From Flavipsychrobacter sp. (GTDB taxonomy: Bacteria; Bacteroidota; Bacteroidia; Chitinophagales; Chitinophagaceae), in contig DATJDP010000103.1 in the NCBI GenBank assembly GCA_035497355.1, positions 1 to 57,259 of the forward strand: a DNA stretch of 57,259 nt, read 5' to 3'. Under the pieces are notes generated by a model. It saw nothing but the letters and a program-made list of their open reading frames with translations, did not search any database and was not told where the DNA came from. Shown in pieces: positions 18,458 through 40,804 of this stretch (position 1 is the first letter of the stretch; every line of letters starts with the position of its first letter). The translations under genes and the position numbers were made by a program.

Positions 18458-18461
18458 TTTG

Positions 18462-18522
18462 ATTTGATAATTTGATGATTTGATGATTGGCCTTAGCTAT
18501 GGCTAATGGCTATGGCTAATGG
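18462..18522. repeat. gatttga word repeat followed by a short (GGCNNN)n tract
   Basis: gatttgataatttgatgatttgatgattgg then ccttagctatggctaatggctatggctaatggc. Confidence 0.8.
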
Positions 18523-18582
18523 CTTGTTTCTGTGTTTTCTTTTTGCAAACTGCCAACTGGAAACTCTCTTTTCTGCCATCTG

Positions 18583-19155: not shown

Positions 19156-19159
19156 GATT

Positions 19160-20044: not shown

Positions 20045-20089
20045 AAGGTTTTTTTAAGTTTAAGTGTTAGTTTTCAAACGATGCATCTT

Positions 20090-20526
20090 TGGGCGAAAGG
20101 GCTTATTGTTTCTTCACTTTTCTTTTTTGCTTCAAATGGCGAAACACTCATTGTCTCTTCATTTTCTTTTTCTTTCAAACGGCGAAGCCCTCATGAGCTA
20201 CCAATAAAAAAATCAATACTATCAGCGAGTAAAAGAAAACGAAGCAAAAGAAAAGACATGACAAATCGAATCGCTCCGCGCGATTTGTCGGGCTATACGC
20301 TGTTAACGCAACTCGCTAATCGACTCCATGGCGCTGTTTGGTATGTTCAACCGGAGGCCTTGATTGTCTCATTCCCTACATCATCACAGCGGCACTTTTC
20401 AGCGTAGTCAAAGAATACAAAGAGGCGCCATCATGGGTTCGGTAGTATAGCTATATTAGGCAGTACCCAAGCGGCTTTCATCCAACAAAAGCGTCATTGG
20501 CAACCTTTAGGTGAAGCAATCTGTGG
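20090..20526 (+). repeat. Third copy of the 'double-hairpin' repeat family also seen at 54640-54845 and 55322-55565
   Basis: gacaaatcgaatcgctccgcgcgatttgtcgggctatacgctgtt at 20260-20304 and gtcattggcaacctttaggtgaagcaatctgtgg at 20493-20526. The ggcgaaNcactcatt words at ~20130-20200 match 55460-55480. Confidence 0.8.
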
Positions 20527-20559
20527 CATTGAGAGCGTTTCCTTGTCTTTTCGTTTCGA

Positions 20560-20960
20560 CGTTTTTTCATTCTGCCCTCTGCCACCTCTGCTTTCTTCCT
20601 ACTTTCCTTCCGGCTGTACATTCAGCATTTTTCCCTTTGCCCTCTGCCCTCTGCCAACTGCCAACTGCCAACTCCCTTTTCTGCCCTCTGCCAACTGTTC
20701 TCTGTCTTCTGTCTGGGCGAACACGCAGGTTCGCCCCTACGTGTTTGCAAACTGCAAACTGCCAACTCTCACTTTATGCCCTCTGCCAACTGTTCTCTGT
20801 CTTCTGACTGGGCGAACACGCAGGTTCGCCCCTACGTGTTTGCCAACTGCAAACTGCCAACTCCCTTTTCTGCCTTCTGCCAACTGCAAACTGCCAACTC
20901 TCTTTTCTGCCAACTGCCAACTCTGCCTTCTGCCTTGTGCAGTTCTCCCGTCCGGGTCAA
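20560..20960. repeat. CTGCCAA heptamer-word region containing two ~80-bp direct repeats, each with a GC hairpin gggcgaac-acgcag-gttcgccc
   Basis: Hairpins lie at 20715-20736 and 20810-20831. The surrounding …ccaactgttctctgtcttctg…cctacgtgtttgc-aactgcaaactgccaact is duplicated with a ~95-bp period. Confidence 0.85.
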
Positions 20961-21004
20961 TGACCGGCAGACTTGCTGCCAGCCATTGCCGTAACAGGAA
21001 GAGT

Positions 21005-21625
21005 TTAGCTTACAAGTTGTTTTGTAGGATTGCTCCACTCACTCACCATTCCCTGAGAACCAAATGCACGCACGCGGAACCAGTATTCCTCTTTGCGCAA
21101 CAGGCCATTGACCACGGTTCTGGATGCGCTGATGATCGGCGATTTCACCCAGTTGTCCTCTGTCATCGGGTCCTTACAGTATTCCACTTCGTAGGATTTT
21201 GCATTGCTCACTTTTTTCCAGCGCAGGATCACCGCCTCGCCATAAATGCTTTCCGTGCGCAGATCCGTCGGCGTATTCAAAAAATCGTAGCGCATAGGGC
21301 CGCGACGTTTCATCGGCAGGCCGGCAAGCAAAATGATGTCTTCGTTGCCGCGACTGATGTTCCATACATAGTTGGCAAGCACCGTTAGATTTTCCTCAAG
21401 CGTACGCCTCTTGGAATTTCGTGTGGCAGTGGCTGCCTTTCCGCCCAGCAGTGTTGCTGCCTGCGCTGCTTTCAGATCATCAATAGAAGATTGAAAATCG
21501 ACAAGTGCCAATGTCGGTGTGGTGAAGATGGTGGCGTTGTCCGTCATTCTGGTAAAGACGTCTTCCGCAAAAGTGAGTAGCTGATCGGGATTCATAGTGT
21601 ACAGTTTCAAAGCGATCTGTGTCAT
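21005..21625 (-). CDS. Fibronectin type III domain protein with an N-terminal helical domain
   Basis: 206 aa. The C-terminal ~90 aa read …PTDLRTESIYGEAVILRWKKVSNAKSYEVEYCKD…WFRVRAFGSQGMVSEWSNP…, the classic FN3 pattern (W…Y-V…Y-FRV-A…G-S-WS). Confidence 0.65.
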   Translation of the reverse strand: MTQIALKLYTMNPDQLLTFAEDVFTRMTDNATIFTTPTLALVDFQSSIDDLKAAQAATLLGGKAATATRNSKRRTLEENLTVLANYVWNISRGNEDIILLAGLPMKRRGPMRYDFLNTPTDLRTESIYGEAVILRWKKVSNAKSYEVEYCKDPMTEDNWVKSPIISASRTVVNGLLRKEEYWFRVRAFGSQGMVSEWSNPTKQLVS

Positions 21626-21896
21626 AGTTTTTATTGTTTTTTGTGTTTAAGAGATTTTATTTCGATTATTAAAAAAGGTAAAGACGTTTGCGGACGATTA
21701 TGATAATAGGATCCGCTGATAGCGACAAGCGCTAAGGAGGTTCATACTTTTCTTTCGTCAGCAGCCACCGCGGTGTGCCGGAGTAGAAGCGGCGTTTAAA
21801 GGGGTTGGCTATCAGTGCTGCATGGCGCTTATTCTTCCCTCTCCGGCAATGTTGCATCCATTGCCTCTTTTCAGGCCTTCTTAGCCTCCAAAAAGC

Positions 21897-22358
21897 AAAC
21901 GAGTTGTCGTTCGTAGCAAACGAGTTATCGTTCGTGACACACGAGTACTCGTTCATAGCAGACGAGTTATCTCTTATAACGAACGAGTTATTGTTCCTGG
22001 CAGACGAGTTATCGTTCGTAGCAGACGAGTTATCGTTAATGACAGACGAGTTATCATTTGTGACAAACGAGTTATCGTTCACTACACATGAGTTATCGTT
22101 TACTACACATGAGTTATCGTTGATGACACATGAGTTATCGTTGATGATGCACGAGTTATTGTTTGTAGTAAACGAGTTGTCGTTGATGACACACGAGTTA
22201 TCGCTCGTAGCAAACGAGTTGTCGTTGATGACGCACGAGTTATCATTCGTGACAGACGAGTTATTGGTCGCAACAGACGAATTATCGTTCATCACACATG
22301 AGTTATCGTTCGTGACAAACGAGTTATCGTTGATCACAGACGAGCATTCGTTTAGGTT
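21897..22358. repeat. Tandem array of 22 units of exactly 21 bp; each unit holds the palindrome AACGA-gtta-TCGTT
   Basis: Units were read individually (aaacgagttgtcgttcgtagc, aaacgagttatcgttcgtgac, …, agacgagcattcgtttaggtt). There are no indels, so phase is kept throughout. Both strands stay open (NDNSxVx on minus, NELSxVT on plus). Confidence 0.95.
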
Positions 22359-22439
22359 TTTTAGGGGCTGGCTGATTATTTGGCGACGTTGTAGCATTTT
22401 CTATCGTTCTATTGATTTCGAATGCAAATATGGGGGTGT

Positions 22440-23036
22440 CGCCTACCCCTGGGTATCGAAAAAGGCAACTTAAGGTAACTAAAGGCAAAAGATGACCACT
22501 TAAGGCAAAAGATGACCACTTAAGGCAACTAAAGACAACTTAGGGACACTTAAGGGAACTAAAGGCAACTTAGGGACACTTAAGGGAACTAAAGGCAACT
22601 TAAGGAGAAGTGGAGGAGTGTGGAAGTGGAGAAGTGAAGGAGTTGATTTGGTGATTTGGTGATTTCGGTGGTGAAGACGTGAAGAAGTGAAGAAGTTGAG
22701 AAGTTGATTCGTACAATGCGCCAGTGCCAGTGCCAGTGCCAAAGCCAAGGCCAGAGCCAAAGCCACAGTCACGGCCATCGCCATCGCCAGCGCCATCGCC
22801 AGAGCCATCGCCAGAGCCATTGCACGCACCCCCTCATGAGGGCTTCGCCGTTGCACCCCGCAAAGAAAGAACAGCTGATGTTAACCACAGATTGCTTCTC
22901 CTAAAGGATCGCAATGACGGCTTTTTTGTTCTTGTCCCGCGCCACAGCCAGCGCCACAGCCACCAGCCATCGCCATCGCCATCGCCATCGCCATCGCCAC
23001 AGCCACCAGCCATCGCCCCCGCCATTAGCCAGCGCC
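22440..23036. repeat. Repeat mosaic: 22-bp and 30-bp direct repeats, gaagtg/gatttg words, and two (NNNGCC)n tracts (22720-22822, 22941-23036)
   Basis: cttaaggcaaaagatgaccact occurs twice and aaaggcaacttagggacacttaagggaact occurs twice. The junction gaagttgattcgtacaatgcgccag plus tract is repeated at 24348-24385. Confidence 0.85.
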
Positions 23037-24164
23037 AAAAAACCGGTTTTCGAGCCAGTAGCGGTACAACGGATCAAGAAAGCTTAGCTTACCATTCATA
23101 TCATCAAGAACATCATTTTGAATCAGCGACTCTTTCAATCTGACCACATTCGCAGAGGTTCCAAGACGGTAAGCTCTTAATGTCTTCTGTGCCGATAATT
23201 GCTCTTCTCCGTTAATGATCGCACGTAACAACTCTAGTTGCCGGCTGTTTAAACCTTCTGTAGTATTGGCAAAAAGCAGGCTCAGCTGATCAATAACCGA
23301 TTCATAGGCAATATTGACTATTTCTCCCGTGCAGTGATGAGTGGTGCGGAACCAGGCCTGTTGCGACAACTGCTGTACATAGTAAGGGTGGTTATCAACC
23401 AGCGTACAGATCAATGCCGCTATATCCCCCGGTATTTCCTTTCCTGTGTCTGCAAATCTTTTGACAATAAAAGAAATCCACTCCACAGAAGCTATTTTCT
23501 GAAGGAAGAATAAATCGCCAAATTTGTAAAATGGCATAGACGGATTAGTAAATATATCAGTAAGCATATGTCGCTTGCTGCCATACAAACAGTACGCTAC
23601 ATGCCGGTGTTGCTGCCAGTGCGAGCGGAGCTTCCGTTGGAAGGCCGCTGCGTCGTCAAACAGCCCTATGTTTTGAAACTCATCAATGCATAGGATCAGT
23701 CGCAGCTTTTTTTCCTCCGCGATTTTTTCTGCCAGATTCAATATCTCGTCGGGCTGCTGTTTTAGTTCCTGCCATCCTATGCTAAAAGACAGCTCCGCCT
23801 GATCGTCGGGCGCAAAAGAAATCCTGGGAACGAGATTAGATAGAAATTTTTTGGCACTTGCAGCAAATTCTTCCCAGGTAGAAGCGGTAGCTTTCAATAT
23901 CTGATTGGCAAGCGATTGGTAAAACTCAACTTCATTTCGAATATTGAATATATCCAGGTGAATGATCCTCATATCGCGATGCTCTGCGGTTATAATTGCT
24001 CCTGCGGTTCGCACGAGCGAGGACTTACCCCATCTTCTAGGTGAAATGATGATAGTATTTGTGAGTGCTTCAAAATTATTTTTTAGTTGACTGATCTCCT
24101 TCACCCTGTTGGTAAAATCAATCGAATCGGGCACTTTACCATACGAAAAAGGAACTGGTTTCAT
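23025..24164 (-). CDS. AAA ATPase (archaeal-ATPase/DUF234-like 'ATP-binding protein')
   Basis: 379 aa with Walker A SPRRWGKSSL and Walker B LILCIDEFQ, followed by a helical C-terminal domain. The stop codon lies inside a hexamer tract. Confidence 0.7.
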   Translation of the reverse strand: MKPVPFSYGKVPDSIDFTNRVKEISQLKNNFEALTNTIIISPRRWGKSSLVRTAGAIITAEHRDMRIIHLDIFNIRNEVEFYQSLANQILKATASTWEEFAASAKKFLSNLVPRISFAPDDQAELSFSIGWQELKQQPDEILNLAEKIAEEKKLRLILCIDEFQNIGLFDDAAAFQRKLRSHWQQHRHVAYCLYGSKRHMLTDIFTNPSMPFYKFGDLFFLQKIASVEWISFIVKRFADTGKEIPGDIAALICTLVDNHPYYVQQLSQQAWFRTTHHCTGEIVNIAYESVIDQLSLLFANTTEGLNSRQLELLRAIINGEEQLSAQKTLRAYRLGTSANVVRLKESLIQNDVLDDMNGKLSFLDPLYRYWLENRFFGAG

Positions 24165-24244
24165 ATATTATAAATGGAGTAAAGTTAATGAAGAGCCAAC
24201 AACTTACAAAGTAGTAAGTTACGAAATGGTAAGTTACGAAATGG

Positions 24245-24473
24245 TTAGCTAGTGAGATGATTTGATGATTTCGGTGGTGACGAAGTGGAGGAGTGGTGGA
24301 GTGGAGGAGTTGAGAAGTTGATTTGATGATTTGGTGATTTCAGAGTGAAGAAGTGAAGAAGTTGATTCGTACAATGCGCCAGAACCATTGCCATTGCCAG
24401 AGCCATTGCCAAAGCCATTGCCATTGCCATTGCCAAAGCCAAAGCCAAAGCCAAAGCCAAAGCCAAAGCCAGC
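24245..24473. repeat. gatttga / gaagtg word repeats followed by an (NNNGCC)n tract (24378-24473)
   Basis: …gaagttgattcgtacaatgcgccagaaccattgccattgccagagccattgccaaagcc… ends in six aaagcc units. Confidence 0.85.
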
Positions 24474-24563
24474 CACTTTCTATTAAAATATCTACCATGT
24501 TAATAGCCGTGGTATTCTCAGGAATATTTTTTTCTTTTTTTTCTACAATAACGGTTTCACCCA

Positions 24564-24571
24564 TATCTTTG
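24564..24571 (+). promoter_or_regulatory. Candidate -7 box TATCTTTG upstream of the XRE/ImmA gene
   Basis: Exact TAnnTTTG match 22 nt upstream of the ATG at 24593. No convincing -33 TTG was seen. Confidence 0.3.
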
Positions 24572-24592
24572 CTGCTGAACAATGGACTGATT

Positions 24593-25624
24593 ATGAGTGA
24601 AGTAAACGGGAATATGATTTTATTGGCAAGGGAAAGCAGAGGATGGACTCAGGCGCAATTAGCCGGAAAAATGGATACCACCCAGAGCAACATTACCAAG
24701 ATGGAACATGCCGAACATGGCACCAATGAGGAATGGACAGCTAAAATAGCGGAAGCCACAGGATACCCCCTGTCTTTTTTCTATCAGAAGGGAGGCATTA
24801 TTCCTGAAAACCTGAATTACCGCAGAAGGGAGAAAGTAGCACAGTCTATATTGTCCCCCCTCAATGCACAGATGACCATTTACCGGCTACAGATAGAAAC
24901 TATAACAGCCGCCCTTAATATACCTGCTATACAATTGCCCGTTCTTGAAGTGACCGAAGAAGCCACGCCACAGGCAATCGCACAAAAGCTGCTTCAGAAA
25001 TGGCATGTTCCCAAAGGGTCCGTAGCAAATCTTACTGATATCATTGAAGGACACGGAATTGTGGTGAACATGTTTGATTTCGGGACAGCACGGGTGGACA
25101 GCCGTTGCCTGATCTCGGAAAACGGTATCCCTATCATTTTTATGAACAGCAGCCTCCTCGGCGACCGTCAGCGGTTCTCGCTTGCCTATCAGTTAGGACA
25201 TCTGATCATGCATACGAGCTCCAACATCTCCTGGGATCGCGACACTGGCCATGAGGCGAACTTGTTCGCGGCAGAACTGCTCATGCCGGAAAAAGATATC
25301 CGTGCGGACTTTGAACAGGGTATCTCCCTGCCGCTTCTGGGTAATCTTAAAAAGAAATGGAAAGTCTCGATGATCGCGCTGCTCTATCGTGCCGATGACC
25401 TGGGCTATGTGACGCCCCAGCAGAAAAAAGCCCTGGTACAACAGTTCAACGACAGGCAGATACGGAGAAGAGAACCAGTAGAACTGGATGTGCCACTGGA
25501 ACAACCACGCTTGCTGCGCCAATGGCTTTCACAGTTGAAATCAGAAAGGAGGATGAACACCTCAGAGCTTGCAGCCATGCTGCATCTGCAGGCCAATGAA
25601 TTTGTAGCGCTATATAATTATTAA
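24593..25624 (+). CDS. XRE-family HTH fused to an ImmA/IrrE-like (COG2856-type) domain with a degenerate HEXXH site
   Basis: MSEVNGNMILLARESRGWTQAQLAGKMDTTQSNITKMEHAE is a Cro/C1-type HTH. Downstream, …RFSLAYQLGHLIMH… stands where ImmA proteins have …AHELGH…, and …EANLFAAELLMPEKDI is the family signature. The ORF-track start at 24353 is repeat-derived. Confidence 0.75.
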   Translation: MSEVNGNMILLARESRGWTQAQLAGKMDTTQSNITKMEHAEHGTNEEWTAKIAEATGYPLSFFYQKGGIIPENLNYRRREKVAQSILSPLNAQMTIYRLQIETITAALNIPAIQLPVLEVTEEATPQAIAQKLLQKWHVPKGSVANLTDIIEGHGIVVNMFDFGTARVDSRCLISENGIPIIFMNSSLLGDRQRFSLAYQLGHLIMHTSSNISWDRDTGHEANLFAAELLMPEKDIRADFEQGISLPLLGNLKKKWKVSMIALLYRADDLGYVTPQQKKALVQQFNDRQIRRREPVELDVPLEQPRLLRQWLSQLKSERRMNTSELAAMLHLQANEFVALYNY

Positions 25625-25669
25625 TAAAGAACCGAAAAACAGAGAGTTAAGAACGGAAACAAGACTTTT

Positions 25670-25894
25670 ATGCAGAGCAAAAGAGAAAATGGGGGGAAGC
25701 CTGTAGTGCGCGCATACACCTATAAGGAACTGATGGATATATACAATGTAAGCCGGAAAACACTGATGTCGTGGCTGGAACCTGTCAGAGAAAAGATTGG
25801 AAAGAAAAGAGGTCGCTGCCTTAGCCCCGGGCAGGTAGAAATAATCTTTGAGGAGCTTGGCTATCCGAAAAATATTGGGGACGATGTGATTTGA
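25670..25894 (+). CDS. Small DNA-binding protein, DUF4248-like
   Basis: 74 aa. The pattern …VRAYTYKELMDIYNVSRKTLMSWLEP…LSPGQVEIIFEELGYP matches what I recall for Bacteroidetes DUF4248. Confidence 0.5.
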   Translation: MQSKRENGGKPVVRAYTYKELMDIYNVSRKTLMSWLEPVREKIGKKRGRCLSPGQVEIIFEELGYPKNIGDDVI

Positions 25895-26285
25895 TGAAGA
25901 AGTGAAGGAGTGGAGGAGTTAAGAAGTGAAGGAGCTAATTTGATGATTTGATAATTGTCTGAATCAGGATTTAAGGATTAACAAGATAGGCCCCACCCAA
26001 CCTCCCCTTCGGGGAGGAGCGCCCAGCGATATCCAATGGGATCACAAATAAACCTGAAGTAGCCCTCCTCTGTCCGGCACTACAGTAGTACTAAAGCGCA
26101 GTAGAGAGACATGGCGAACATAGGAAGTCATTATGTTCGCCGGCTTTTTTGGTTACTTTTTTAGCCGGAAAAAAGTAACAGAAAGACTCTGAACCAGAAT
26201 TTATAGGATTTAGGATTGACAGAATAAGACTTTCGCACAAAGGCCAGAGCTTCTGCCATCGCCATCGCTACCAGCCATCGCCACT
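25895..26285 (+). repeat. Word repeats plus long repeat element copy 2 (short form, 25957-26262) plus a hexamer tract
   Basis: gtctgaatcaggatttaaggattaac…ccccacccaacctccccttcggggaggagcgcccagcgatatccaatggg… is near-identical to 16860-17115 and 27545-27812. Confidence 0.9.
26113..26150 (+). terminator. Intrinsic terminator inside repeat copy 2
   Basis: ggcgaacata-ggaagtcat-tatgttcgcc followed by ggctttttt. Confidence 0.6.
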
Positions 26286-26729
26286 ACTCCGGTCATTAAA
26301 CGCATCAAGTTTACTAGCGATAAAATAGGCGACCGGAAATATTCTTATCTGTATTCCATGTTCCGAAGTATAAGTTTGCAAATGTTTGAAACCTTCCTTA
26401 TACCAGCGGCTTTTGAAGCCGAGCACTTCTTCCTCCGTGGGCATAATGTCAACGATAAGCCCCTGATACTTATAACGGCATGTGATCTTTGCTTCAGTAT
26501 CTAATGCAAACCCCAGAACCCTTAGCCTTTCCTGCAGTTTTGTGTAAGCGCTATAGGTGGCTATCTCGACGAGCACATCAATATCATCGGTCGGTCTCGT
26601 ATCCGTTTGCTCAGGGTGATCGGCATATAAAGACACGGTTGCTCCACCGACAAATGCAATATCATCCTTCAGTTCAACTAAGGCACTAGCTACACCTTTG
26701 ATTCTTATAAGGTTAATATGATGGCTCAT
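26268..26729 (-). CDS. Nucleotidyltransferase-fold protein (AbiEii/MNT-like), with its C-terminus replaced by repeat sequence
   Basis: …FVGGATVSLYA…RPTDDIDVLVE is a GG…DxD nucleotidyltransferase signature. The last residues SSGDGW are encoded by the hexamer tract, which suggests 3' truncation. Confidence 0.55.
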   Translation of the reverse strand: MSHHINLIRIKGVASALVELKDDIAFVGGATVSLYADHPEQTDTRPTDDIDVLVEIATYSAYTKLQERLRVLGFALDTEAKITCRYKYQGLIVDIMPTEEEVLGFKSRWYKEGFKHLQTYTSEHGIQIRIFPVAYFIASKLDAFNDRSSGDGW

Positions 26730-27234
26730 AAATTTCCTGTTTCAGTTTTTCTATTGCTAATTCTTTCTCCCTTACTTTTCCCATTCTTATGACATCAATC
26801 AAGGCGAGGTACAAATAAAGCTTGCTGTCCATTTTGGCCGCATTTACAGCACCAGGATACAATGGCTGTACACTTAGGCCTCTATAACCACTCTCTACGT
26901 CCGGCCAAACATATATCTCACTGTCGACTATTTTTTCCTTGAAATATTCATGGCTATGACCCGTGGGCATCCCTTTCGCCATGCCGCCCGGTGTCTGAGG
27001 AAAAATATACGGGAGTCCATAAATAAGAAATTCTGTAAAGGACTGTAATCTGATTTTTTTGTGATCCGCATCAAACAGTCCGGAGATTGCATTTCTCTGA
27101 AGAGAATTAGATATCTCTGCGGTGCTTAAATAAAGTTCGGCAGCCAACTCCTTATTCATCCATGACTTTCTGTTTGCACTAATGATTTTTAACAGTACAA
27201 CGACATCCTGGGGGCGCATGTTGGAATTTACCAT
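26713..27234 (-). CDS. Winged-helix DNA-binding protein, upstream partner of the nucleotidyltransferase
   Basis: 173 aa. The N-terminus …DVVVLLKIISANRKSWMNKELAAELYLSTAEISNSLQRNAISGL is MarR/wHTH-like. It overlaps the downstream gene by 17 nt. Confidence 0.5.
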   Translation of the reverse strand: MVNSNMRPQDVVVLLKIISANRKSWMNKELAAELYLSTAEISNSLQRNAISGLFDADHKKIRLQSFTEFLIYGLPYIFPQTPGGMAKGMPTGHSHEYFKEKIVDSEIYVWPDVESGYRGLSVQPLYPGAVNAAKMDSKLYLYLALIDVIRMGKVREKELAIEKLKQEIYEPSY

Positions 27235-27299
27235 GAGGCAAATATAAAAAATTACATGGTTTATGATTTATAAATCGTAAATCACTTAATGTGATTCTA

Positions 27300-27920
27300 C
27301 ACTAATGGTGTAGCTATCAGAACAACCACAGCAAGTGCCATAGCCATAGCTTTTTTGCCATCGCCATCGCCACGAGCCATCGCCAATGCCGCAGGCCAGT
27401 GCCAATAGCCAGCGCCACAGCTAACCACGGAGGCACGGAGATCATCAATAATGATGAATTGTGAATTATGAATGGCGGGCGGAAGCAAATGATGAACCAC
27501 AGAATGCGAGCGTCGGATATTCTTTGTCATTCCGCCTGCATATAAGCCCCACCCAACCTCCCCTTCGGGGAGGAGCGCCCAGCGATATCCAATGGGATCA
27601 CAAATAAACATGAAGTAGCCCTCCTCTGTCCAGCACTACAGTAGTACTAAAGCGCAGTAGAGAGACATGGCGAACATAGGAAGTCTTTATGTTCGCCGGC
27701 TTTTTTGGTTACTTTTTTAGCCGGAAAAAAGTAACAGAAAGACTCTGAACCAGAATTTATAGGATTTATGATTGACAGAATAAGACTTTCGCACAAAGGC
27801 CAGAGCTTCTGCCAGTGCCATCGCTATAGCCATCGCCATCGCCACCAGCCACTGCCTTCTGCCAGTGCCATGGCCACCAGCCACCAGCCACTGCCATCGC
27901 CAGAGCCGCAAGCCAGCGCC
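27300..27920 (+). repeat. Hexamer tract (27331-27420), long repeat element copy 3 (27446-27812) and a second hexamer tract (27799-27920)
   Basis: caataatgatgaattgtgaattatgaatggcggg…tataagccccacccaacctccccttcggggaggagcgcccagcgatatcc… was read against copies 1 and 2. Confidence 0.9.
27669..27705 (+). terminator. Intrinsic terminator inside repeat copy 3
   Basis: ggcgaacata-ggaagtctt-tatgttcgcc followed by ggctttttt. Confidence 0.6.
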
Positions 27921-27935: not shown

Positions 27936-28601
27936 TCACTGCTTCACTATTCTCGCTGGCACACCTACTGCCGTGCAGTCAGGAGGCAGCGATTGGGTTA
28001 CTACTGCGCCTGCGCCTATTTTTGTTCGCGCGCCAATAGTCACGTTGTTCAATATCTTCGCTCCGGTTCCTACAAATACGCCTTCTTCCAGCGTTACATT
28101 GCCGGAAATATTAACACCCGGCATCACCGAACAGTAATCACCGATCTGCACGTCATGGCCTACTGTACAGCCCAGGTTTAGCAATACGTGTCTGCCTATC
28201 TTTATGTCTACCGTAAGCAGGTTGCCCGCAGTAATGATGCTCCCCTCTCCTATATTAGCCCGCAGCTCTTTTTCAATCTCAACGGATGGGTGAATGATCA
28301 CCGGATAGGTCAGAAATGGATTGGTAAGCGAGTCGGCCACCTGCTTTTTTATTGTGGGGTCTCCGATAGCGATTACTACGTTATTACTGTCGGTAACTCT
28401 ATTAGGCTCTGGAAGGCTATTGAGAAAGGCACCATTCTCCAATACGGAATAATAACCACAGCGCGTCTGCTTAGGCAGGTTATCATCTATAAAGCCGCAA
28501 AGCGTCCAACACTTCTCGATGCTGTCAATTTTTTCAAGCAATTGGAAGACCTCTCTGCCAAGCCCCCCTGCTCCGTAAACGACTATGGGTCCGGTATACA
28601 T
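27936..28601 (-). CDS. NeuD/PglD-family sugar N-acetyltransferase (Rossmann-like N-domain + LbH)
   Basis: 221 aa with N-terminus VVYGAGGLGREV and C-terminal hexapeptide repeats …IGDYCSVMPGVNISGNVTLEEGVFVGTGAKI…. Confidence 0.75.
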   Translation of the reverse strand: MYTGPIVVYGAGGLGREVFQLLEKIDSIEKCWTLCGFIDDNLPKQTRCGYYSVLENGAFLNSLPEPNRVTDSNNVVIAIGDPTIKKQVADSLTNPFLTYPVIIHPSVEIEKELRANIGEGSIITAGNLLTVDIKIGRHVLLNLGCTVGHDVQIGDYCSVMPGVNISGNVTLEEGVFVGTGAKILNNVTIGARTKIGAGAVVTQSLPPDCTAVGVPARIVKQ

Positions 28602-28830
28602 GTTTTTTGAATTATGAATGTTGAATTATGAATGTTGAACGGGCCAAGAAAATTATGAATGGTGAATTATAAATTATAAATGGATTGAAATAAAGGTAAA
28701 TTGTGGAAGGGTCTTAATCAATAGTGAATGATGAACTATGAAAGGGTCAGAATAAGATGAATCTTAAATATAAATGACAAATGAGGTAAAGCACTAATGA
28801 ATTGTGAGTTATAAATTGCCGATTGCAAAT
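28602..28830. repeat. A+T-rich gaattatgaat word repeats
   Basis: gaattatgaatgttgaattatgaatgttgaac…aattatgaatggtgaattataaattataaatgg…gtgaatgatgaactatgaaa…. Confidence 0.8.
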
Positions 28831-28923: not shown

Positions 28924-28950
28924 ACAAAAAAAGCAGCCGGTTGGCTGCTT
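28924..28950 (-). terminator. Rho-independent terminator after the 28975-29571 acetyltransferase (end of the long minus-strand operon)
   Basis: The minus strand reads aagcagcc-aacc-ggctgctt followed by ttttttt. Confidence 0.65.
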
Positions 28951-28974: not shown

Positions 28975-29571
28975 TTATCCTTTTATTATCCTGCCCGGAT
29001 TCCCTACAACGGTTGAGCCGTCCGGTACGTCTCTGATCACCACTGCACCTGCGCCTATTTTGCACCAACTACCGATGCTAATACCCGGGATGACCACTGC
29101 ACCCGCCCCTATATGAGTTCCTTCTCCTACTGAAACATTTCCACAAAGCGTAGCGTTGGGAGAGATATGAACAAAATCTGCAACTAGGCAATCATGCTCT
29201 ACAACTGCACCCGTATTAATAATAACATGTTTTCCGATTTTTGAATCAGCGTTGATAACGGCATTGGCCATCACCACAGTACCAGGGCCAACAGATGATG
29301 ATTCTGCAAGAACTGCTCTGGGGTGGACGGCGGTAAGAAAATTACAGCTCGTTTCAATCCTTCCTGCAATCATCTTTCTTGTATTGTTATCCCCGATACT
29401 TATGACAACACTTTTATCTTTCTTGTCATCCAGTTGAGGGGGAGACACCGTATAGCCACAGAACAGTCCCTTAGGCGCATCATCCCAAATAGCATCTGGT
29501 TTAAGTCCATTTGCTTTGAAAATATCCAATATCACTTTGCCATGGCCACTGGCGCCGTAAAGTATGAGCAT
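28975..29571 (-). CDS. NeuD/PglD-family sugar N-acetyltransferase (second paralog)
   Basis: 198 aa. MLILYGASGHGKVILD… N-domain followed by LbH repeats …IGKHVIINTGAVVEHDCLVADFVHISPNATLCGNVSVGEGTHIGAGAVV…. Confidence 0.8.
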   Translation of the reverse strand: MLILYGASGHGKVILDIFKANGLKPDAIWDDAPKGLFCGYTVSPPQLDDKKDKSVVISIGDNNTRKMIAGRIETSCNFLTAVHPRAVLAESSSVGPGTVVMANAVINADSKIGKHVIINTGAVVEHDCLVADFVHISPNATLCGNVSVGEGTHIGAGAVVIPGISIGSWCKIGAGAVVIRDVPDGSTVVGNPGRIIKG

Positions 29572-29611
29572 CTATGGTAGTAAATAAAAGAAAATTGCCA
29601 AAGGCAAATCA

Positions 29612-29971
29612 TCAGCGATCAAGCAGAAAATTTTCTATCTGGCTAAATGATTTCAGTTTGTAAATTGGAATATCGGAAGTATTATGCCGTATGTGTTTCT
29701 GTGTTTTGGCTACTGCTTGTAGCATTTTCAGAACAGCATAGTCAGCGTTCGCTACAACTATTACCTTCTTTGTTTCCTTAGCCACAAGCAGTTTATCTAT
29801 ATAAAACTGATCCGCAAACGAACGACTAATGTAAGTCACCTGCGTAAAGTCCAACTCTATTTTATCACCGGAACTTTCTTTGATAGCCTGCATCAGTATG
29901 CCTGATGCTTCACGAGTATGTATCGTAGCACCAAACAATTGAAAGATCGATATAGAAGCAGAACCAGCCAT
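29612..29971 (-). CDS. STAS-like small protein (DUF4325-type)
   Basis: 119 aa. The core …TREASGILMQAIKESSGDKIELDFTQVTYISRSFADQFYIDKL… matches the DUF4325/anti-sigma-antagonist-like LDF-GV-ISSSF pattern. Confidence 0.65.
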   Translation of the reverse strand: MAGSASISIFQLFGATIHTREASGILMQAIKESSGDKIELDFTQVTYISRSFADQFYIDKLLVAKETKKVIVVANADYAVLKMLQAVAKTQKHIRHNTSDIPIYKLKSFSQIENFLLDR

Positions 29972-30004
29972 TTCAGGATAGTGAAGTTACGACAATAATA
30001 CTGA

Positions 30005-30922
30005 CTAAATGTCCGTATAATTATAAAAATTAAAATCTCCGGGTGTCAGTGTAGGTAAACGGATTGCGATATATGTACCCTGAAAAAAAGCACTGGACGA
30101 AATATCTGCTATTTGCTGTGATTCAACGGTCTGTAGAAACGTTACACCTCCGGTCCAGATAAAAATCTGCCCTTTCAGGCCATTCACCAACATGTTACGG
30201 GTTGAGGATACTCCAAACCCTCTTGCCTCAGGTCTGTCCTTTGTCGAGCCACCTGTTACAGCCAATAACAGTGCTTCTGCTTCAGTCTTCGTTGCAAAAT
30301 CGGGATGATTGCTGAAAGACCCAAATATCCCTTGGCCGCCATCACAAATACAAAGGTCGAGATAACTACTTTTCGGATAATATTGTGCAAAGACGTAGCC
30401 GTTCGAAGCCCCGGAATGGTCATTAATATTGTTGGTCAACTCGTCAAGAAAGTAGGATAGTGGCATGCGCTGGTTTTCAGAAAACCGTAGCTGGTTTTTA
30501 AGAACTTCAGAAACGGCACTCAGAATATGTTCCCTCGCCAATGATACAGATGTATCTGTACCGGTTTTAAAGCTAATAATCGGTATATATGTTTTATACG
30601 AATACCTCTCTAACGAGTTTTCCTTAAGCGGTTTCCCTTCGTTAACAGAAAAGGTTGTCGGAAAGTGAATTGCTTTCAAATAGGTATGAATGTCCGGATT
30701 ACTTTCGTGATTCAGCGTGAATGTTTTTCCTAACGATTGCAGCCTTATTATTTCACAAACCAATCCTCCGAGGAAGAAAGGATTTAACATCTTCGCCTCA
30801 CTGAAATCCAAGTTAATCCTATCGTCCTTTACTGCATTTATCACCGCAATGATTGTAATTAACTTCGACAGGCTGTCGCCGAAGTCCTCATGAGTCCTGA
30901 TTGGTATTGTAACAGTTTGCAC
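30005..30922 (-). CDS. GHKL (HATPase_c) ATPase/kinase of the SpoIIAB/RsbW type with an N-terminal STAS-like segment
   Basis: 305 aa with N-box DELTNNINDHSG, G1 box ICDGGQGIFG and G2-like EARGFGVSSTRNM. The N-terminal …RINLDFSEAKMLNPFFLGGL… resembles the LDF core of the neighbouring small protein. Confidence 0.65.
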   Translation of the reverse strand: MQTVTIPIRTHEDFGDSLSKLITIIAVINAVKDDRINLDFSEAKMLNPFFLGGLVCEIIRLQSLGKTFTLNHESNPDIHTYLKAIHFPTTFSVNEGKPLKENSLERYSYKTYIPIISFKTGTDTSVSLAREHILSAVSEVLKNQLRFSENQRMPLSYFLDELTNNINDHSGASNGYVFAQYYPKSSYLDLCICDGGQGIFGSFSNHPDFATKTEAEALLLAVTGGSTKDRPEARGFGVSSTRNMLVNGLKGQIFIWTGGVTFLQTVESQQIADISSSAFFQGTYIAIRLPTLTPGDFNFYNYTDI

Positions 30923-30942: not shown

Positions 30943-31542
30943 TCAGCCTGTAAATTTTTCCATTGTTACCGAGGTGGGGGAATTGATGCCTTCTGACTTA
31001 AATACCTTCGCCACCGTCAGCAAAATGATTTTTACGTCCAGGGCAAAGCTTAAATGCTTCACATACCAAACGTCATATTCAAACTTTTGATTCCAGCTAA
31101 TCGCATTACGGCCGTTCACCTGCGCCCACCCTGTAATACCGGGGCGCACAGCATGTCGCTTCTTTTGTTCTTTATTATACAAAGGGAGATATTCTACCAG
31201 CAATGGTCTCGGACCTACGAGACTCATATCTCCCTTGACGACGTTTAGCAATTGTGGAATTTCATCTAGTGACGTTTTCCGTACAAACCTGCCAATTGCG
31301 GTGAGTCGCTCTGAATCCGGCAGCAAATTGCCGGTAGCATCTCTCTTATCGTTCATCGTTTTAAACTTGATGACTTTGAAAATGCACTCGTTTTGGCCAG
31401 GGCGAGGTTGGAGAAAGAAGGCTCCGCCTCTATTCGCTATGAATAATAACAATGTAACAATTAAAAAAAAGGGAGACAGCACTATAAACCCTGCCAGGGC
31501 AAAGATGAAGTCAAGGGGCCGTTTAAAGTAGTTCTGGTACAC
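30943..31542 (-). CDS. Small monotopic phosphoglycosyl transferase (PglC/WbaP-C-terminal type 'sugar transferase'), initiating enzyme
   Basis: 199 aa: [23 protein letters not shown]…, …KFKTM…, …[22 protein letters not shown]…, …[13 protein letters not shown]…. Confidence 0.9.
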
Positions 31543-31629: not shown

Positions 31630-32751
31630 TCAAGATGCACTTGCTGTTTTTGGGGAAACTGCAAACAGTTCTATTAGGTGCTTCGCTATGCGCTTCGCCG
31701 TTTTGCCATCCCAAAGTTCAGGAATGCCACCTTCTTTCCAGTTACCGGAAAGTAGCTTTTGAAAAGCTGGTGGTACTGCGGCAGGATCGGTTCCTACCAA
31801 CTCGTTAGTGCCGATGCTGCAAGTTTCTGGTCTTTCTGTATTATCACGAAGCGTTATACAAGGCACATTCATTACAGTAGTTTCTTCTGTAATACCGCCC
31901 GAGTCAGTTACCACTGCCTTAGCATGCTTGACGAGATAATTAAACTCGAGATATCCCAGAGGATCGATCATATGAAGATTTGGCGCGTCAATCCCGATAC
32001 TCTGCAGCATTTTTGCAGTCCTTGGATGAACGGGAAAAACAAGTGGCAAACCTTTAGAAGAGCTAATAATTGCATCCATTAAGGCTTTTAGTTTCTGCTC
32101 TGCATCTACATTGGCCGGTCTGTGCAAGGTCATAACAATATATTCCTTTTCTTTCAGACCTATTTCGTTCCATATTGGCGGCTGCTGGAAACGCGGCATC
32201 TGTTTGAGTAAAGTATCAATCATCGTGTTGCCGACAAAGAAGATCCTGTTATCTGCAACACCGCTTTTTCGAAGATTTTCATTAGCCGTTTCTGAAGTGG
32301 TGAAAAAATAATCAGTTATTGAATCGGTCACCATACGATTGATTTCCTCCGGCATGGTAAGATCGCCACTACGAATACCCGCTTCCACATGTGCTACTTT
32401 AATATTATCCAGCTTTTTTGCAGTGATAGAACAAGCCATCGTGGAAGTAACATCGCCAACTACTAGTACCAAATCTGGCCGTTGCTCCATGAGCACTTTT
32501 TCATAACGGACCATGATGGCGGCTGTTTGTTCCGCCTGAGTGCCTCCGCCGGCCTCCAGATTAATATCAGGTTCGGGAATTCCTAACTGCTGGAAAAAGT
32601 CGCCAGACATCTTTTTATCATAGTGCTGACCGGTATGGATAAGGCGGCAGTTCAGATCAAATCCTTCGTTTTGTTGGTGTTGAATGGCCTCTATGATAGG
32701 GGCAATTTTCATGAAGTTTGGACGCGCTCCTGCGATGATGTCTATAAGCAT
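31630..32751 (-). CDS. wecB: UDP-N-acetylglucosamine 2-epimerase (non-hydrolysing, WecB-like)
   Basis: MLIDIIAGARPNFMKIAPIIEAI… and …VTDSGGITEETTVMNVPCITLRDNTERPET…. The start is set at the ATG complementary to 32749-32751. The 45-aa extension in the ORF track covers repeat words. Confidence 0.85.
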   Translation of the reverse strand: MLIDIIAGARPNFMKIAPIIEAIQHQQNEGFDLNCRLIHTGQHYDKKMSGDFFQQLGIPEPDINLEAGGGTQAEQTAAIMVRYEKVLMEQRPDLVLVVGDVTSTMACSITAKKLDNIKVAHVEAGIRSGDLTMPEEINRMVTDSITDYFFTTSETANENLRKSGVADNRIFFVGNTMIDTLLKQMPRFQQPPIWNEIGLKEKEYIVMTLHRPANVDAEQKLKALMDAIISSSKGLPLVFPVHPRTAKMLQSIGIDAPNLHMIDPLGYLEFNYLVKHAKAVVTDSGGITEETTVMNVPCITLRDNTERPETCSIGTNELVGTDPAAVPPAFQKLLSGNWKEGGIPELWDGKTAKRIAKHLIELFAVSPKTASAS

Positions 32752-32836
32752 GGTGTCAATTTGGTAATTTGATAATGGGGTGAATGTGGCAAATGTGATG
32801 AATGTGGTAAATGTGAATAGGTCGAGTATGTGACGA
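32752..32836. repeat. Word repeats (gtgaatgtgg/aaatgtgat; gtgacgact x2) in an intra-operon spacer
   Basis: ggtaatttgataatggggtgaatgtggcaaatgtgatgaatgtggtaaatgtgaat…gtatgtgacgactaatgtgacgact. Confidence 0.75.
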
Positions 32837-34078
32837 CTAATGTGACGACTTAAGTTGAAGGATTCGTTGAATATACTTTTCAGCAAGTACTTCCCTATCG
32901 AAGTTAACCTTCGCGTAGCGATATCCGTTCTCGCCTTCCGTTTGCAGCCTCATCGGATCTTTTAGATATTGGCGGATTACGGTGTTATAAGCGGCAATAT
33001 TTTCCGGCTCTACATAACTTCCAGCCTGGGCTGTCTCGACAAGTTCACGCGATACACCGTCAATAGCCATCAATATCGGCTTTTTGCAGGACATATAGTC
33101 AAATGTCTTATTGGAATATACCGTCTTAAAGGTATCCACCCGCTTCAATACAGAAGCACCCATTTCAGAAGCAAGAATATATTTAAAGACTTCCTTTTTG
33201 GGAACGGCGTCAATGAAACGCACATTTTTTATAGCCATTTCCTTTGCTTTCTGCTTCAATTTTTCCTTCTCCATTCCCTGCCCGATCAGCAGAAACTGGA
33301 CATTGGTATCTTCCAATGCTTTCCCTGCCTCTAATACCTGCTCCAAGTGGTTCGCTACGCCGTGAGCGCCTACGTAAGTGATCACAAATTTCCCATCCAG
33401 CTCCTGTTGTATTCGAAATGTCTCCCGGTCAAAGCTGTTCAGCAATTCTTCCGACAGCGTAAAGTCTGAAGCGTTGGGAATCATAATCAACTTTCCCGCT
33501 GATACATTCTTCTTCTCTAAAAGTGTCTTATAGAAAGCAGGTGTCAGTACATTGATCAATGCTGCCTTACGATATATGAAGGCTTCAAACCAGTACGCAA
33601 GCTTTATAATTGTTTTATTGGTGAGCACACCTGTATCAATGGCGGATTCCGGCCAGAGGTCCGTGATTTCAAACACAAAAGGCATTCTTCTGAAACGGGA
33701 TACGAGATAGCCGCTGAGGCCGACAAAAAGGGGTGGAGAGGTGACGACTACTACGTCAAACTTGCCTTTTGCCTTAAATAGCCCTGCCCAAAGCGAAGAG
33801 AACATAAAGGAGAAGTAACCCCAAAGCCTGCCGAGAAAGTTCTTATTATAAGCCTCAGAAACATGGCAACGAATAACATTTATGTTTCCCTGTTTTTTCT
33901 TTACAAAGTAGCGCCCTTTATATTCCTGTCTTTTTTCCTTTCCATTGGCATGCATCATCCCCGCCAGGACCGTTACTGTGTGACCTTTATCCGTCCACAT
34001 CTTCGTCATTTCGTTCCAGCGCGAACCACCTGCATCGTCCTCTTCCAGAAAATATTGATGGAGTAATAGTATGTTCAT
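32837..34078 (-). CDS. GT4 glycosyltransferase, WbuB-like (6-deoxy-L-HexNAc transferase type)
   Basis: 413 aa. The N-terminus MNILLLHQYFLEEDDAGGSRWNEM… is typical of the WbuB/CapL family, followed by a GT-B C-terminal domain. Confidence 0.75.
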   Translation of the reverse strand: MNILLLHQYFLEEDDAGGSRWNEMTKMWTDKGHTVTVLAGMMHANGKEKRQEYKGRYFVKKKQGNINVIRCHVSEAYNKNFLGRLWGYFSFMFSSLWAGLFKAKGKFDVVVVTSPPLFVGLSGYLVSRFRRMPFVFEITDLWPESAIDTGVLTNKTIIKLAYWFEAFIYRKAALINVLTPAFYKTLLEKKNVSAGKLIMIPNASDFTLSEELLNSFDRETFRIQQELDGKFVITYVGAHGVANHLEQVLEAGKALEDTNVQFLLIGQGMEKEKLKQKAKEMAIKNVRFIDAVPKKEVFKYILASEMGASVLKRVDTFKTVYSNKTFDYMSCKKPILMAIDGVSRELVETAQAGSYVEPENIAAYNTVIRQYLKDPMRLQTEGENGYRYAKVNFDREVLAEKYIQRILQLKSSH

Positions 34079-39057: not shown

Positions 39058-39674
39058 CAGAAGGTTGCAAAGTTTTGTAATAAGGTAACGCCGTTATGAT
39101 GGCTTTTTTCGGGATGAAACTGGACACCAAAAACGTTTTTATTACTCACCGCGGAGGCAAAGGTTTGTCCGTAGGTGGTGGTTGCCAATACGTCTTCAGA
39201 ATTGTGACAGTGAAAATAATAGCTGTGGAGAAAATAGAAGCCTTGCTCGGCATCAATACCTTGAAATAATTTATTAGCCTTCGATACTGAGACAGAGTTC
39301 CACCCCAGGTGAGGAACTTTGGGTTTGAACTTAAGGCTTGAGGGATTTATCCTCCTCACTTCTCCCTTAATCCATCCGAGTCCCGGCAAATCTCCTTCCT
39401 CGCTCCGCTCGGCCAATATCTGCATTCCAACACAAATCCCAACAACCGGTACTTTGTTGTTTAATACTTCATGGTCCAATATTGACCTGAACCCTGAACT
39501 ATCGAGCCTGGATATTGTTTCATCAAAAGCTCCTACTCCTGGAAGGATAATTTTTTCAGCACCTTCTACATCGTCCTCATTATTGGCAATTTTATATGGA
39601 ATTCTAAGGCGGTCATAAATATTGCAGATGGCACTTATGTTGCCAGAGCCGTAGTTAATAATTGTAACCATCAT
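39057..39674 (-). CDS. HisH-like glutamine amidotransferase subunit (WbuY-type)
   Basis: 205 aa: MVTIINYGSGNISAI…, catalytic GICVGMQ, and …FGVQFHPEKS. Confidence 0.85.
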   Translation of the reverse strand: MMVTIINYGSGNISAICNIYDRLRIPYKIANNEDDVEGAEKIILPGVGAFDETISRLDSSGFRSILDHEVLNNKVPVVGICVGMQILAERSEEGDLPGLGWIKGEVRRINPSSLKFKPKVPHLGWNSVSVSKANKLFQGIDAEQGFYFLHSYYFHCHNSEDVLATTTYGQTFASAVSNKNVFGVQFHPEKSHHNGVTLLQNFATF

Positions 39675-40804
39675 CTTTTAATTGATCTTTCAACACCCAA
39701 CATCTTAAGAGCCTTTGCTCCCGCTTTAAATAAAGATTCCTGATTCTTATAATCCCAATAAAACTTCTTTGGCATATTAAAATAGCCTCTCAACTCGCCC
39801 GAAGTGATACCAAGCTTTGTTGCAATGTAGTTGAATTCGTCATCAATCGTAGCAGGGTCAAAAGCTGGCTTCTTAAGTAGCTCAAGCGCTTCTTCGCGTG
39901 TCATCTGACCGGTCAGTATTAGACTAGAATATTGAACACGACGTGTGTCAAACCCAAACCGTTCTGGCAGCCAGTACCCCTCATAAAACTTAGTAAAACG
40001 CGATTCAAAGTGCTTTTGCGGATAAGGTTTCCAACCATAAGTGTCCGCCAGTAGCTTTAACGCATCGGACTTGATATAGGGTCGGTAGTTCAAAGGCTTT
40101 ACAACCTGTACGCCCTTCAAATAGCGAAGATAGAACTTGTGCCGAAAGATTGGACTAAACGGATAAGTATCCATTTTAACGGTTCCAAATTGATTTATAA
40201 TGTCACGGATTTGTGCCATATCCGTTCCATAGTAGAGCCATTCCATTGGATTCCGCACGCACTCTGTAGAAATATTACCACCGTTCAGGATGTACTTAAT
40301 CTTATACTTATCCGCAAAGTTGTACAAGGTTGCAATAAAGGCGTGATCCTGTGGTATATCCAAATGTGGAACTCCGGATTTGAAAAAAGCAAGCTGGAAA
40401 TCGCGCATTTCCTCCCAGTTAATCACCTCGGTGAACAGATCAAGCCCTAGTTTGTCAATCATAACTTGAATATTGTTCACAGCCAACTCCGAATTCCAAC
40501 CTCCGTCTACGTGAAAAACAAGCGGACGTAAACCGAATTCTTTAACTGCCAGATGCAGCATATAAGAACTGTCTACACCGCCACTCATGCCGAGCAGGCA
40601 ATCGAAATCGCGTCCTTCGCCGTCCTTTTTAATTTTAGCGACTATAGCTTGTAATTGTTCTTTGCCTCTCTCACCGGTATGCCAGTTCGGCTTTACATTA
40701 GTATAAAAATCGTTGCAATGGTCACAAACGCCCCTTTTATCAAAACTGATACGGGCGTCGCTATTATCCATGACGCAGTTCGAACACATGTGATATTCTG
40801 GCAT
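39671..40804 (-). CDS. N-acetyl sugar amidotransferase (WbuX-type, PP-loop ATP pyrophosphatase)
   Basis: 377 aa with an N-terminal Cys cluster (CSNCVM…CDHC), a PP-loop GMSGGVDSS, and 4-nt overlap with the HisH-like gene. Confidence 0.8.
   Translation of the reverse strand: MPEYHMCSNCVMDNSDARISFDKRGVCDHCNDFYTNVKPNWHTGERGKEQLQAIVAKIKKDGEGRDFDCLLGMSGGVDSSYMLHLAVKEFGLRPLVFHVDGGWNSELAVNNIQVMIDKLGLDLFTEVINWEEMRDFQLAFFKSGVPHLDIPQDHAFIATLYNFADKYKIKYILNGGNISTECVRNPMEWLYYGTDMAQIRDIINQFGTVKMDTYPFSPIFRHKFYLRYLKGVQVVKPLNYRPYIKSDALKLLADTYGWKPYPQKHFESRFTKFYEGYWLPERFGFDTRRVQYSSLILTGQMTREEALELLKKPAFDPATIDDEFNYIATKLGITSGELRGYFNMPKKFYWDYKNQESLFKAGAKALKMLGVERSIKR

Follow-up and report, generated by a model that had tools for sequence, protein, structure and literature searches.

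The contig DATJDP010000103.1 of Flavipsychrobacter sp. (assembly GCA_035497355.1), whose entire stretch of 57,259 nucleotides was analysed and is called the window here, carries a polysaccharide operon on its minus strand, and within this operon lies a pair of regulatory-looking genes. The first gene of the pair (30005..30922, minus strand, GTG start) encodes a 305-amino acid (aa) STAS-GHKL protein, a putative Ser/Thr kinase of the CapK/VapK family, which we designated “K”. The second (29612..29971, minus strand) encodes a 119-aa DUF4325/STAS-like protein, the putative substrate or partner of K, which we designated “S”. Upstream of the pair is a full-length gene for a PglC-like initiating sugar-phosphate transferase (Bac_transf; 30943..31542, minus strand; PF02397, E-value 2.9e-61, profile positions 1–179/179), and downstream of it is a full-length gene for a NeuD/PglD-type sugar N-acetyltransferase (28975..29571, minus strand; TIGR03570, E-value 4.8e-68). 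The pair is co-directional with the operon, and the intergenic gaps between Bac_transf and K, between K and S, and between S and the acetyltransferase gene are 20, 33, and 40 nt, respectively. The 40-nt gap after S holds a small hairpin followed by a T-run (29595..29607, minus strand), a weak terminator-like site recognized by a pattern match only. The original prediction, made from the sequence of the window alone, had given the two open reading frames (ORFs) and the three gaps correctly, and the motifs that it quoted were all present: DELTNNINDHSG, ICDGGQGIFG, EARGFGVSS, and RINLDFSEAKMLNPFF in K, and KIELDFTQVTYISRSFADQF in S.

Domain architecture of K and S

K has a GHKL (Bergerat-fold) ATP-binding domain at about aa 120–305 (30008..30565, minus strand), established by its fold and motifs despite a Pfam score below the threshold for HATPase_c_2 when the single sequence was searched (13.4 bits, E-value 0.08); its relatives P0079 and P0199 do reach PF02518. 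The N-box (E161–S170, 30413–30442), the G1 box (D194–G198, 30329–30343), and the G2 box (E232–G237, 30212–30229), all on the minus strand, are GHKL motifs, and residues E161, N165, H169, S170, D194, G196, G235, and G237 were invariant across the K homologues in alignments of 25–33 sequences. The AlphaFold2 (AF2) model of K had a predicted local distance difference test score (pLDDT) of 88.8 and a predicted template modelling score of 0.89, and its Foldseek matches in the PDB were mostly GHKL domains (GyrB/ParE), including SpoIIAB (1th8_A, probability 1.00, template modelling (TM) score 0.72 of the target). The N-terminal STAS-like domain, at about aa 1–100 (30623..30922, minus strand), was recognized from a family-profile match together with the predicted secondary structure: the K family profile matched TM1442, a STAS protein and anti-sigma antagonist, over aa 27–97 (E-value 9e-4), and this region of the AF2 model has a beta-alpha-beta-alpha-beta-alpha order. 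In the profile alignment, the phospho-Ser position of TM1442 corresponds to the near-invariant Pro48 of K; therefore, K's STAS domain cannot be phosphorylated at the canonical position. The column of residue 45, which is Met in K, contains M, I, or H in near relatives and F or W in distant ones.

The close homologues of K numbered 83, each of about 305 aa, and the nearest genomic relatives came from metagenome-assembled genomes (MAGs) of Chitinophagaceae, with 58–59% identity; the majority of the members retrieved belonged to Bacteroidota. An exhaustive profile search with K yielded 5,927 clusters at 50% identity (E-value ≤1e-3), 361 of them at E-value ≤1e-30, and the length was 290–310 aa in nearly all clusters. 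The ATP-lid motif G-x-S-T-K-D-R-P-E-x-R-G-F-G was restricted to the clade of K itself. Among phage protein families, K matched phrog_3364 over its full length (E-value 1.2e-34), a PHROG to which no function has been assigned. When K was searched with PADLOC v2, aa 110–291 matched the DrmA model PDLC02567 (E-value 1.3e-11) at positions 101–272 of 1750, a partial match that indicates a shared domain and not membership of a defence system. In one protein, P0214 (1266 aa), a K-type STAS-GHKL module forms the C-terminus of a DEAD/ResIII helicase. Such fusions are rare; taken with the match to the DrmA model, this one points to the module having been coupled repeatedly to the helicases found in DISARM-like systems.

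S is composed of a STAS core (aa 1–94), a disordered linker (aa 95–108), and a conserved C-terminal tail with a helix. In its AF2 model (pLDDT 84), the secondary structure elements follow the order beta-alpha-beta-alpha-beta-alpha, and the terminal helix occupies residues 109–117; STAS domains made up nearly all of the best structural matches found by Foldseek (SLC26, RsbS, SpoIIAA, and TM1442). As a single sequence, S remained below the gathering threshold of DUF4325 (PF14213; 19.5 bits vs. 23, E-value 8e-4), and more distant S-type partners passed it (41.6 bits in locus L054, 59.2 in L058, and 30.2 in L055). Judged by these scores, DUF4325 membership holds at the family level and not for S as a single sequence. 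PADLOC v2 gave no match with S. The motif ISRSFADQ was invariant in 26 close homologues of S, and the residues S49-R50-S51 (codons at 29819..29827, minus strand) are situated at the N-terminus of the STAS helix alpha2. The pattern [ST]49-R50-[SGA]51 occurred in 50 S homologues, including archaeal and phage proteins, with a universal hydroxyl residue at position 49 only, making S/T49 the candidate phospho-acceptor. In the AF2 model, residue 49 caps the N-terminal end of helix alpha2, the helix itself beginning at residue 50, and this structural position is the one at which SpoIIAA, CapS, and VapS receive their phosphate. The tail of S (P102-x-Y104 ... L112-E-N-F-L-L) was conserved across the Bacteroidota homologues, and the pattern P-[IV]-[YF]-x-[YF] ... 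L-E-x-[FY]-L-L was restricted to the clade of S. Searches of Pfam and NCBIfam with the single sequences thus yielded matches below threshold or none, and the domains are instead confirmed by the family profiles, the folds, and the invariant residues; the proposal that K joins a STAS-like module at its N-terminus to a GHKL domain and is accompanied by a free STAS/DUF4325 partner holds.

Pairing, genomic contexts, and mobility of the pair

In about 50 loci, a non-redundant set that comprised essentially all of those with room for a second gene, the gene directly after K, and in the same orientation, encoded a homologue of S. The K-then-S order was checked in these loci only, out of the approximately 5,900 clusters from the profile search, and it confirmed that the adjacency of the two genes, as predicted, is conserved in other genomes. 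The unit occurs in bacteria, archaea, phages, and plasmids, and the only exceptions to the pairing were one contig end, two GHKL-DUF4325 fusions, and two distant relatives, one of which had a Pfam-positive DUF4325 partner. The pairing is obligate to the point of covalent fusion: one fusion protein has the architecture STAS-GHKL-DUF4325 (L054) and another GHKL-DUF4325 (L058). A third K-S fusion is probably represented by a 414-aa protein of a Nostoc plasmid, which is annotated as DUF4325 domain-containing and whose first part is matched by K. The two proteins have also co-diverged, given that the pairwise identities of K and S were correlated with r = 0.84, a value reached in 0 of 2000 permutations. 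In two loci (L003 and L010), the K and S genes were tightly coupled or overlapping. The K gene was disrupted, by in-frame stops or by loss of its 5′ half, with S intact in 6 of about 46 genome loci, and the reverse was never seen; given the gene lengths, this K-only decay was not significant (binomial p about 0.14). The K-disrupted MAG loci were L015, L018, L019, L035, L036, and L037, with K at about 5100–6900 in each.

The genes around the pair were unrelated between loci. Its 137 nearest neighbours represented 169 Pfam families, none of which was found in more than three proteins, and there was no conserved third gene among them. Sigma factors and PP2C phosphatases were not recurrent among the neighbours of related K/S loci, and the PIN family was not among the 25 neighbour families listed for the about 50 related loci. 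The pair was found next to an Ssp-like phosphorothioation cluster and next to a type I restriction-modification (R-M) system with KilA-N and AAA/S8 genes, and its further neighbours elsewhere included type IIG R-M, Dcm with Vsr, Fic, Panacea, and integrases.

The pair is carried by mobile elements of several kinds. In Bacteroides phage BF1-TP2, gp43 and gp42 constitute the pair and are annotated as “ATP-binding protein” and “DUF4325 domain-containing protein”. In Streptococcus prophages, the pair directly follows the lysin gene, and in a Francisella prophage, the interval from repressor to integrase encodes a hypothetical protein of 293 aa and, after it, a DUF4325 protein of 112 aa (PMC7924643). 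A plasmid of the haloarchaeon Halobaculum carries the pair as well. In the archaeal prophage psiM100 of Methanothermobacter, ORFB and ORFC of the “inserted fragment IFa” are K-like and S-like, respectively. This fragment (L011, 3562–6354) encodes ORFB with 252 aa, ORFC with 107 aa, and ORFD with 492 aa, the last without a Pfam match; it sets psiM100 apart from psiM2, and the homologues MTH315 and MTH316 are annotated in a chromosome of the host genus. A pattern scan of IMG/VR with the K profile gave no match, a result that is probably due to the limits of pattern matching, given that the pair is present in phages deposited in GenBank.

Insertion into the polysaccharide operon

As a comparison set, we used 80 metagenomic loci with acetyltransferase relatives at 49–59% identity, 50 of which contained enough upstream sequence. 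Bac_transf ended within 150 nt of the acetyltransferase start in 32 of these 50 loci, with gaps mostly of −25 to +26 nt, and neither K nor S was found in any of the 80 related PglC/PglD-type loci. Since the glycan genes normally abut and K/S is absent from 80 loci, the 1.37-kb K/S segment is an insertion. The direct adjacency of the PglC-like and PglD-like genes in related loci contradicts the earlier claim that the pair takes the place at which such loci usually carry aminotransferase and dehydratase genes. K/S between Bac_transf and the acetyltransferase gene was also found in four related metagenome samples, and homologues of the glycan genes of the window flanked only 2 of 54 other K/S loci. 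At its present site, the cassette is probably transcribed through read-through from the capsule operon. A 19-nt imperfect repeat at 29648 and 30938 was considered as a possible insertion scar and was judged to be due to chance, one copy lying inside the conserved 3′ end of S.

The polysaccharide locus as a whole is a minus-strand run from about 54500 to 28975, with genes for Wzz/BY-kinase, GT4 glycosyltransferases, UDP-GlcNAc 2-epimerase, HisH/HisF-like proteins, and a heparinase-like protein. The run had been described as ending at a terminator, and a terminator-like hairpin closing the operon was indeed found there (28931..28950, minus strand, reading 28950–28931), with an 8-bp stem of which 5 pairs are G-C and a T-run after it. 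In the centre of the operon (window 41000–52000), the guanine-cytosine (GC) content was 0.34–0.40, compared with about 0.44 elsewhere; a low-GC centre such as this is typical of the horizontally exchanged, serotype-specific core that it may represent. Three ORFs of the operon (43565–44860, 50155–51705, and 39671–40804) had no Pfam match. The epimerase ORF (31630–32886, minus strand) has a TTG start, encodes 418 aa, and shares 50 nt with the upstream GT4 gene; in a metagenome contig that is nearly identical, the epimerase was called with 373 aa (L059, 2570–3691) vs. 418 aa in the window, and Bac_transf had 137 aa vs. 199 aa. From these gene calls, the start codons of the epimerase and Bac_transf genes are uncertain.

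Beyond the operon terminator lies a second acetyltransferase paralogue of the PglD_N+Hexapep type (27936–28601, minus strand), with promoter-like sites at about 28640–28700. Tandem repeats based on the hexamers GCCATC/GCCATA (periods 6, 13, and 32) are present at 27357–27411 and 27817–27915; the repeat patch has a GC content of 0.53–0.56 and adjoins the 3′ end of the second acetyltransferase gene, and the odd “AMAMALA” and “HRHRH” ORFs arise because of these hexamer repeats. The region at 15500–27300, just past the end of the polysaccharide operon, contains mainly ORFs without matches, together with a DUF4143 fragment (15569–16105), a STAND-like ATPase (ATPase_2/nSTAND1; 23025–24164), and an HTH_XRE-Peptidase_M78 (ImmA/IrrE-like) protein (24353–25624). 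Judged from this gene content, it resembles a variable region, possibly a defence or mobile island. As had been stated, neither a sigma factor nor a PP2C phosphatase is evident in the window; the scan behind this result covered most, not all, of the ORFs of at least 150 aa.

Role of the pair and comparison with known systems

CapK/CapS and VapK/VapS/VapC, described in 2026, showed that rewiring can give an anti-sigma-like kinase-STAS pair different outputs. CapK (HTH-STAS-GHKL) is switched on by single-stranded DNA (ssDNA) and transfers phosphate to a conserved Ser in helix alpha2 of CapS (STAS with a winged helix-turn-helix, wHTH), whose phosphorylation de-represses the adjacent immune operon; CBASS, Bub, and Thoeris operons are regulated in this way (Chambers et al., EMBO J 2026, PMC13373217). 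VapK (STAS-GHKL) phosphorylates VapS, a 116-aa protein made up of a STAS core and a short C-terminal helix, and thereby frees the PIN toxin VapC; VapKSC gave about 2 logs of protection, reported for one phage, and an aromatic residue in the STAS domain of the kinase (W68 in CapK and F54 in VapK) is required for activation by ssDNA (PMC13373217). Using the VapK and VapS sequences taken from the supplementary AlphaFold 3 model of that study, we found that the K family profile matched VapK with an hhalign probability of 95.7% (E-value 9.7e-9) over 262 columns, aa 3–289 against aa 14–288, a nearly full-length alignment that spans both domains.

We conclude, with a probability of roughly 0.6 for the explanation as a whole, that the pair is a mobile kinase-STAS module of the CapK/VapK family that was inserted here and whose most likely role lies in conflict or stress, not in glycan control. 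Its parts differ in strength: it is very probable that a mobile cassette of this family, and not a glycan regulator, was inserted at this site, and a role in conflict or stress, be it anti-phage, addiction-type, or prophage-encoded exclusion, is a tentative proposal that falls somewhat short of an even chance. Of the two readings in the original prediction, the hitch-hiking cassette fits the unrelated contexts, the carriage by phages, prophages, and plasmids, the occasional R-M and Ssp neighbours, and the absence from 80 loci, and the switch that gates glycan assembly is unsupported as a family function, with glycan homologues near only 2 of 54 other loci. The statement that no function had been characterized for such a pairing stands for the effector-less form, which was undescribed in the literature searched, and fails for its relatives CapK/CapS and VapK/VapS/VapC (PMC13373217).

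By analogy with these relatives, K would be a SpoIIAB-like GHKL Ser/Thr kinase with a non-phosphorylatable N-terminal STAS domain, and S would be its cognate DUF4325/STAS protein. In this scheme, K would bind S, and a stress or infection cue, which is ssDNA in the characterized relatives, would activate K. The cue for K may be intracellular and possibly a nucleic acid, an uncertain assignment since the aromatic contact residue is missing. Active K would then phosphorylate a Ser/Thr at the N-terminus of helix alpha2 of S, with S/T49 as the best candidate and S51 as a possible one, and phosphorylation would alter what S binds through its STAS face and conserved C-terminal tail. Because S has no DNA-binding domain and no toxin is linked, the output would lie either in K itself or in a host or phage target encoded elsewhere. 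The pair is thus an effector-less variant of a known kinase-STAS switch. More speculatively, free-standing K and S might form a complete two-gene sensor-effector system for immunity or addiction, of a new type with thousands of protein clusters, in which the GHKL kinase is the effector or the S tail holds a core host factor, the cue is not ssDNA in this clade, where Met stands in for the aromatic contact residue, and insertion into a capsule operon couples expression to the production of phage receptors; we think this extension unlikely. The pairing of an ATP-binding protein with a DUF4325 protein is already labelled in databases, and the kind of mechanism is published for CapKS and VapKSC. 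The effector-less two-gene form and the insertion into a capsule operon were undescribed in the literature searched, where the CapKS/VapKSC paper was the sole functionally relevant find.

Several observations weigh against this explanation. Neither target-site duplications nor terminal repeats were found at the cassette borders, where there was also no clear GC shift. Recognizable defence genes were beside a minority of K/S loci only, several loci were located among plain housekeeping genes, and PADLOC has no model for the K/S pair itself, its library predating CapKS and VapKSC. S resembles VapS weakly (E-value 0.004 over the first 42 columns). At the position of VapK F54 and CapK W68, K has Met45, and the activating signal of K may therefore differ from ssDNA. 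The phospho-Ser of SpoIIAA and TM1442 and S48 of VapS align with the invariant R50 of S, a register that is ambiguous by one residue; the search for an acceptor Ser/Thr in the STAS protein that had been suggested at the outset thus found a hydroxyl residue at S/T49 in 50 of 50 homologues, and the canonical position is taken by Arg50.

The alternative nearest to the explanation above, and in effect a sub-variant of it that requires no further target, is an addiction module in which K is a kinase toxin and S its STAS antitoxin. K would then be the effector, phosphorylating essential host or phage proteins or burning ATP, and S, as a pseudo-substrate, would be the antitoxin that keeps K sequestered, in the way that SpoIIAB-ADP is locked by unphosphorylated SpoIIAA. 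Such a module would account for two genes that travel together without a conserved third gene, that are tightly coupled or overlapping in L003 and L010, and that are found in accessory regions of prophages and on plasmids. Also in its favour is the disruption of K with S intact at 6 of about 46 loci and never the reverse; however, this bias was not significant (binomial p about 0.14, as given above), covalent K-S fusions are unusual for toxin-antitoxin pairs that rely on differential stability, and the conservation of the C-terminal tail in S hints at one more binding partner. We regard an addiction module as possible but on the doubtful side.

Alternatively, this operon might have co-opted the pair as a control on polysaccharide initiation or N-acetylation, for example with S bound to the PglC-like transferase or the PglD-like acetyltransferase and released by phosphorylation. 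The co-directional arrangement with gaps of 20–40 nt, its recurrence in four metagenome samples, the locus L008, in which the pair adjoins a Bac_transf gene at the edge of a glycan locus, and the small hairpin after S, which could modulate acetyltransferase expression, would all be compatible with such a switch. On the other hand, no feature of K or S is specific to this locus, the closest homologues (about 60% identity) occur in unrelated contexts, and the pair is present in phages, in archaea, and among housekeeping genes. A glycan-specific function was rejected on its absence from 80 loci (with the glycan genes abutting in 32 of 50) and on the 2 of 54 glycan contexts elsewhere, and control of this operon by the pair is very improbable. 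Even more remote is a classical anti-sigma/anti-anti-sigma switch, in which K sequesters a sigma factor encoded elsewhere and S relieves the sequestration. It is favoured by the size-normalized fold score, in which SpoIIAB is the closest GHKL likeness, by the best Pfam match of K, HATPase_c_2 of the SpoIIAB/RsbW family, and by the name “anti-sigma regulatory factor” given in one source to the homologue P0041. Nevertheless, K has a STAS domain of its own, and the targets of CapK and VapK are a repressor or an antitoxin and not sigma factors (PMC13373217); a sigma-factor partner switch was rejected because archaea and their viruses, which lack sigma factors, also carry the pair, and because neither a sigma factor nor PP2C was linked to it among the scanned ORFs of the window or recurrent at related loci.

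The window shows a third, much larger configuration beside the CapK/CapS and VapK/VapS/VapC types, one that has no linked output and is carried on phages, prophages, plasmids, and archaeal viruses; its size is that of the approximately 5,900 clusters from the profile search, of which about 50 loci were checked for the pairing. Identifying the partner of S would show the extent to which the sensor module is reused and whether the kinase can be the effector. For annotation, the lesson is that regulatory-looking genes paired within a capsule operon are not necessarily its regulators. The result adds to a kind of system already known and introduces no new principle.

Among the known systems, SpoIIAB/SpoIIAA and RsbW/RsbV share with K and S a small GHKL serine-kinase fold (1th8_A, TM score 0.72) and a single-domain STAS partner, and the chemistry of K and S is probably, by this analogy, of the SpoIIAB type, in which a Ser at the N-terminal end of helix alpha2 is phosphorylated. 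In contrast to SpoIIAB and RsbW, K is twice as long and has a fused STAS domain, its family is mobile and present in phages and archaea, and among the ORFs scanned no sigma factor or PP2C phosphatase is linked to the pair. The gene order differs as well: spoIIAA precedes spoIIAB, the reverse of the K-then-S order. The database pairs labelled “ATP-binding protein” and “DUF4325 domain-containing protein”, together with PHROG 3364, belong to the same broad family, as does the PIN.4 group, which has been described as “coupled to DUF4325” (PMC5499597). These entries are annotation labels without an assigned function, and S itself is just below the DUF4325 gathering threshold.

CapK and CapS resemble the pair in combining a GHKL kinase that has a STAS domain with a STAS protein encoded downstream, and the catalytic Asn is kept (N218 in CapK, N165 in K). 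However, K is without the N-terminal HTH of CapK, and S is without the wHTH, having only a tail of roughly 25 aa after the STAS core; lacking this DNA-binding domain, S is therefore not a CapS-type repressor, and an acetyltransferase gene, not an immune operon, follows the pair. VapKSC differs in its VapC/PIN gene, which is absent here, where the space between S and the acetyltransferase gene is only 40 nt; no PIN family was among the 25 neighbour families listed for the about 50 related loci. The hydroxyl residue of S is one position before that of VapS S48, at which S has an invariant Arg, and the tails of S and VapS have unrelated sequences. In other respects, VapK and VapS closely parallel the pair: K has the same STAS-GHKL architecture (305 vs. 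302 aa) with the gene order K then S; S likewise has a STAS core plus a short C-terminal segment ending in a helix (119 vs. 116 aa), with a conserved Ser/Thr at the N-terminus of helix alpha2; and both families are patchily distributed, with some loci beside defence genes.

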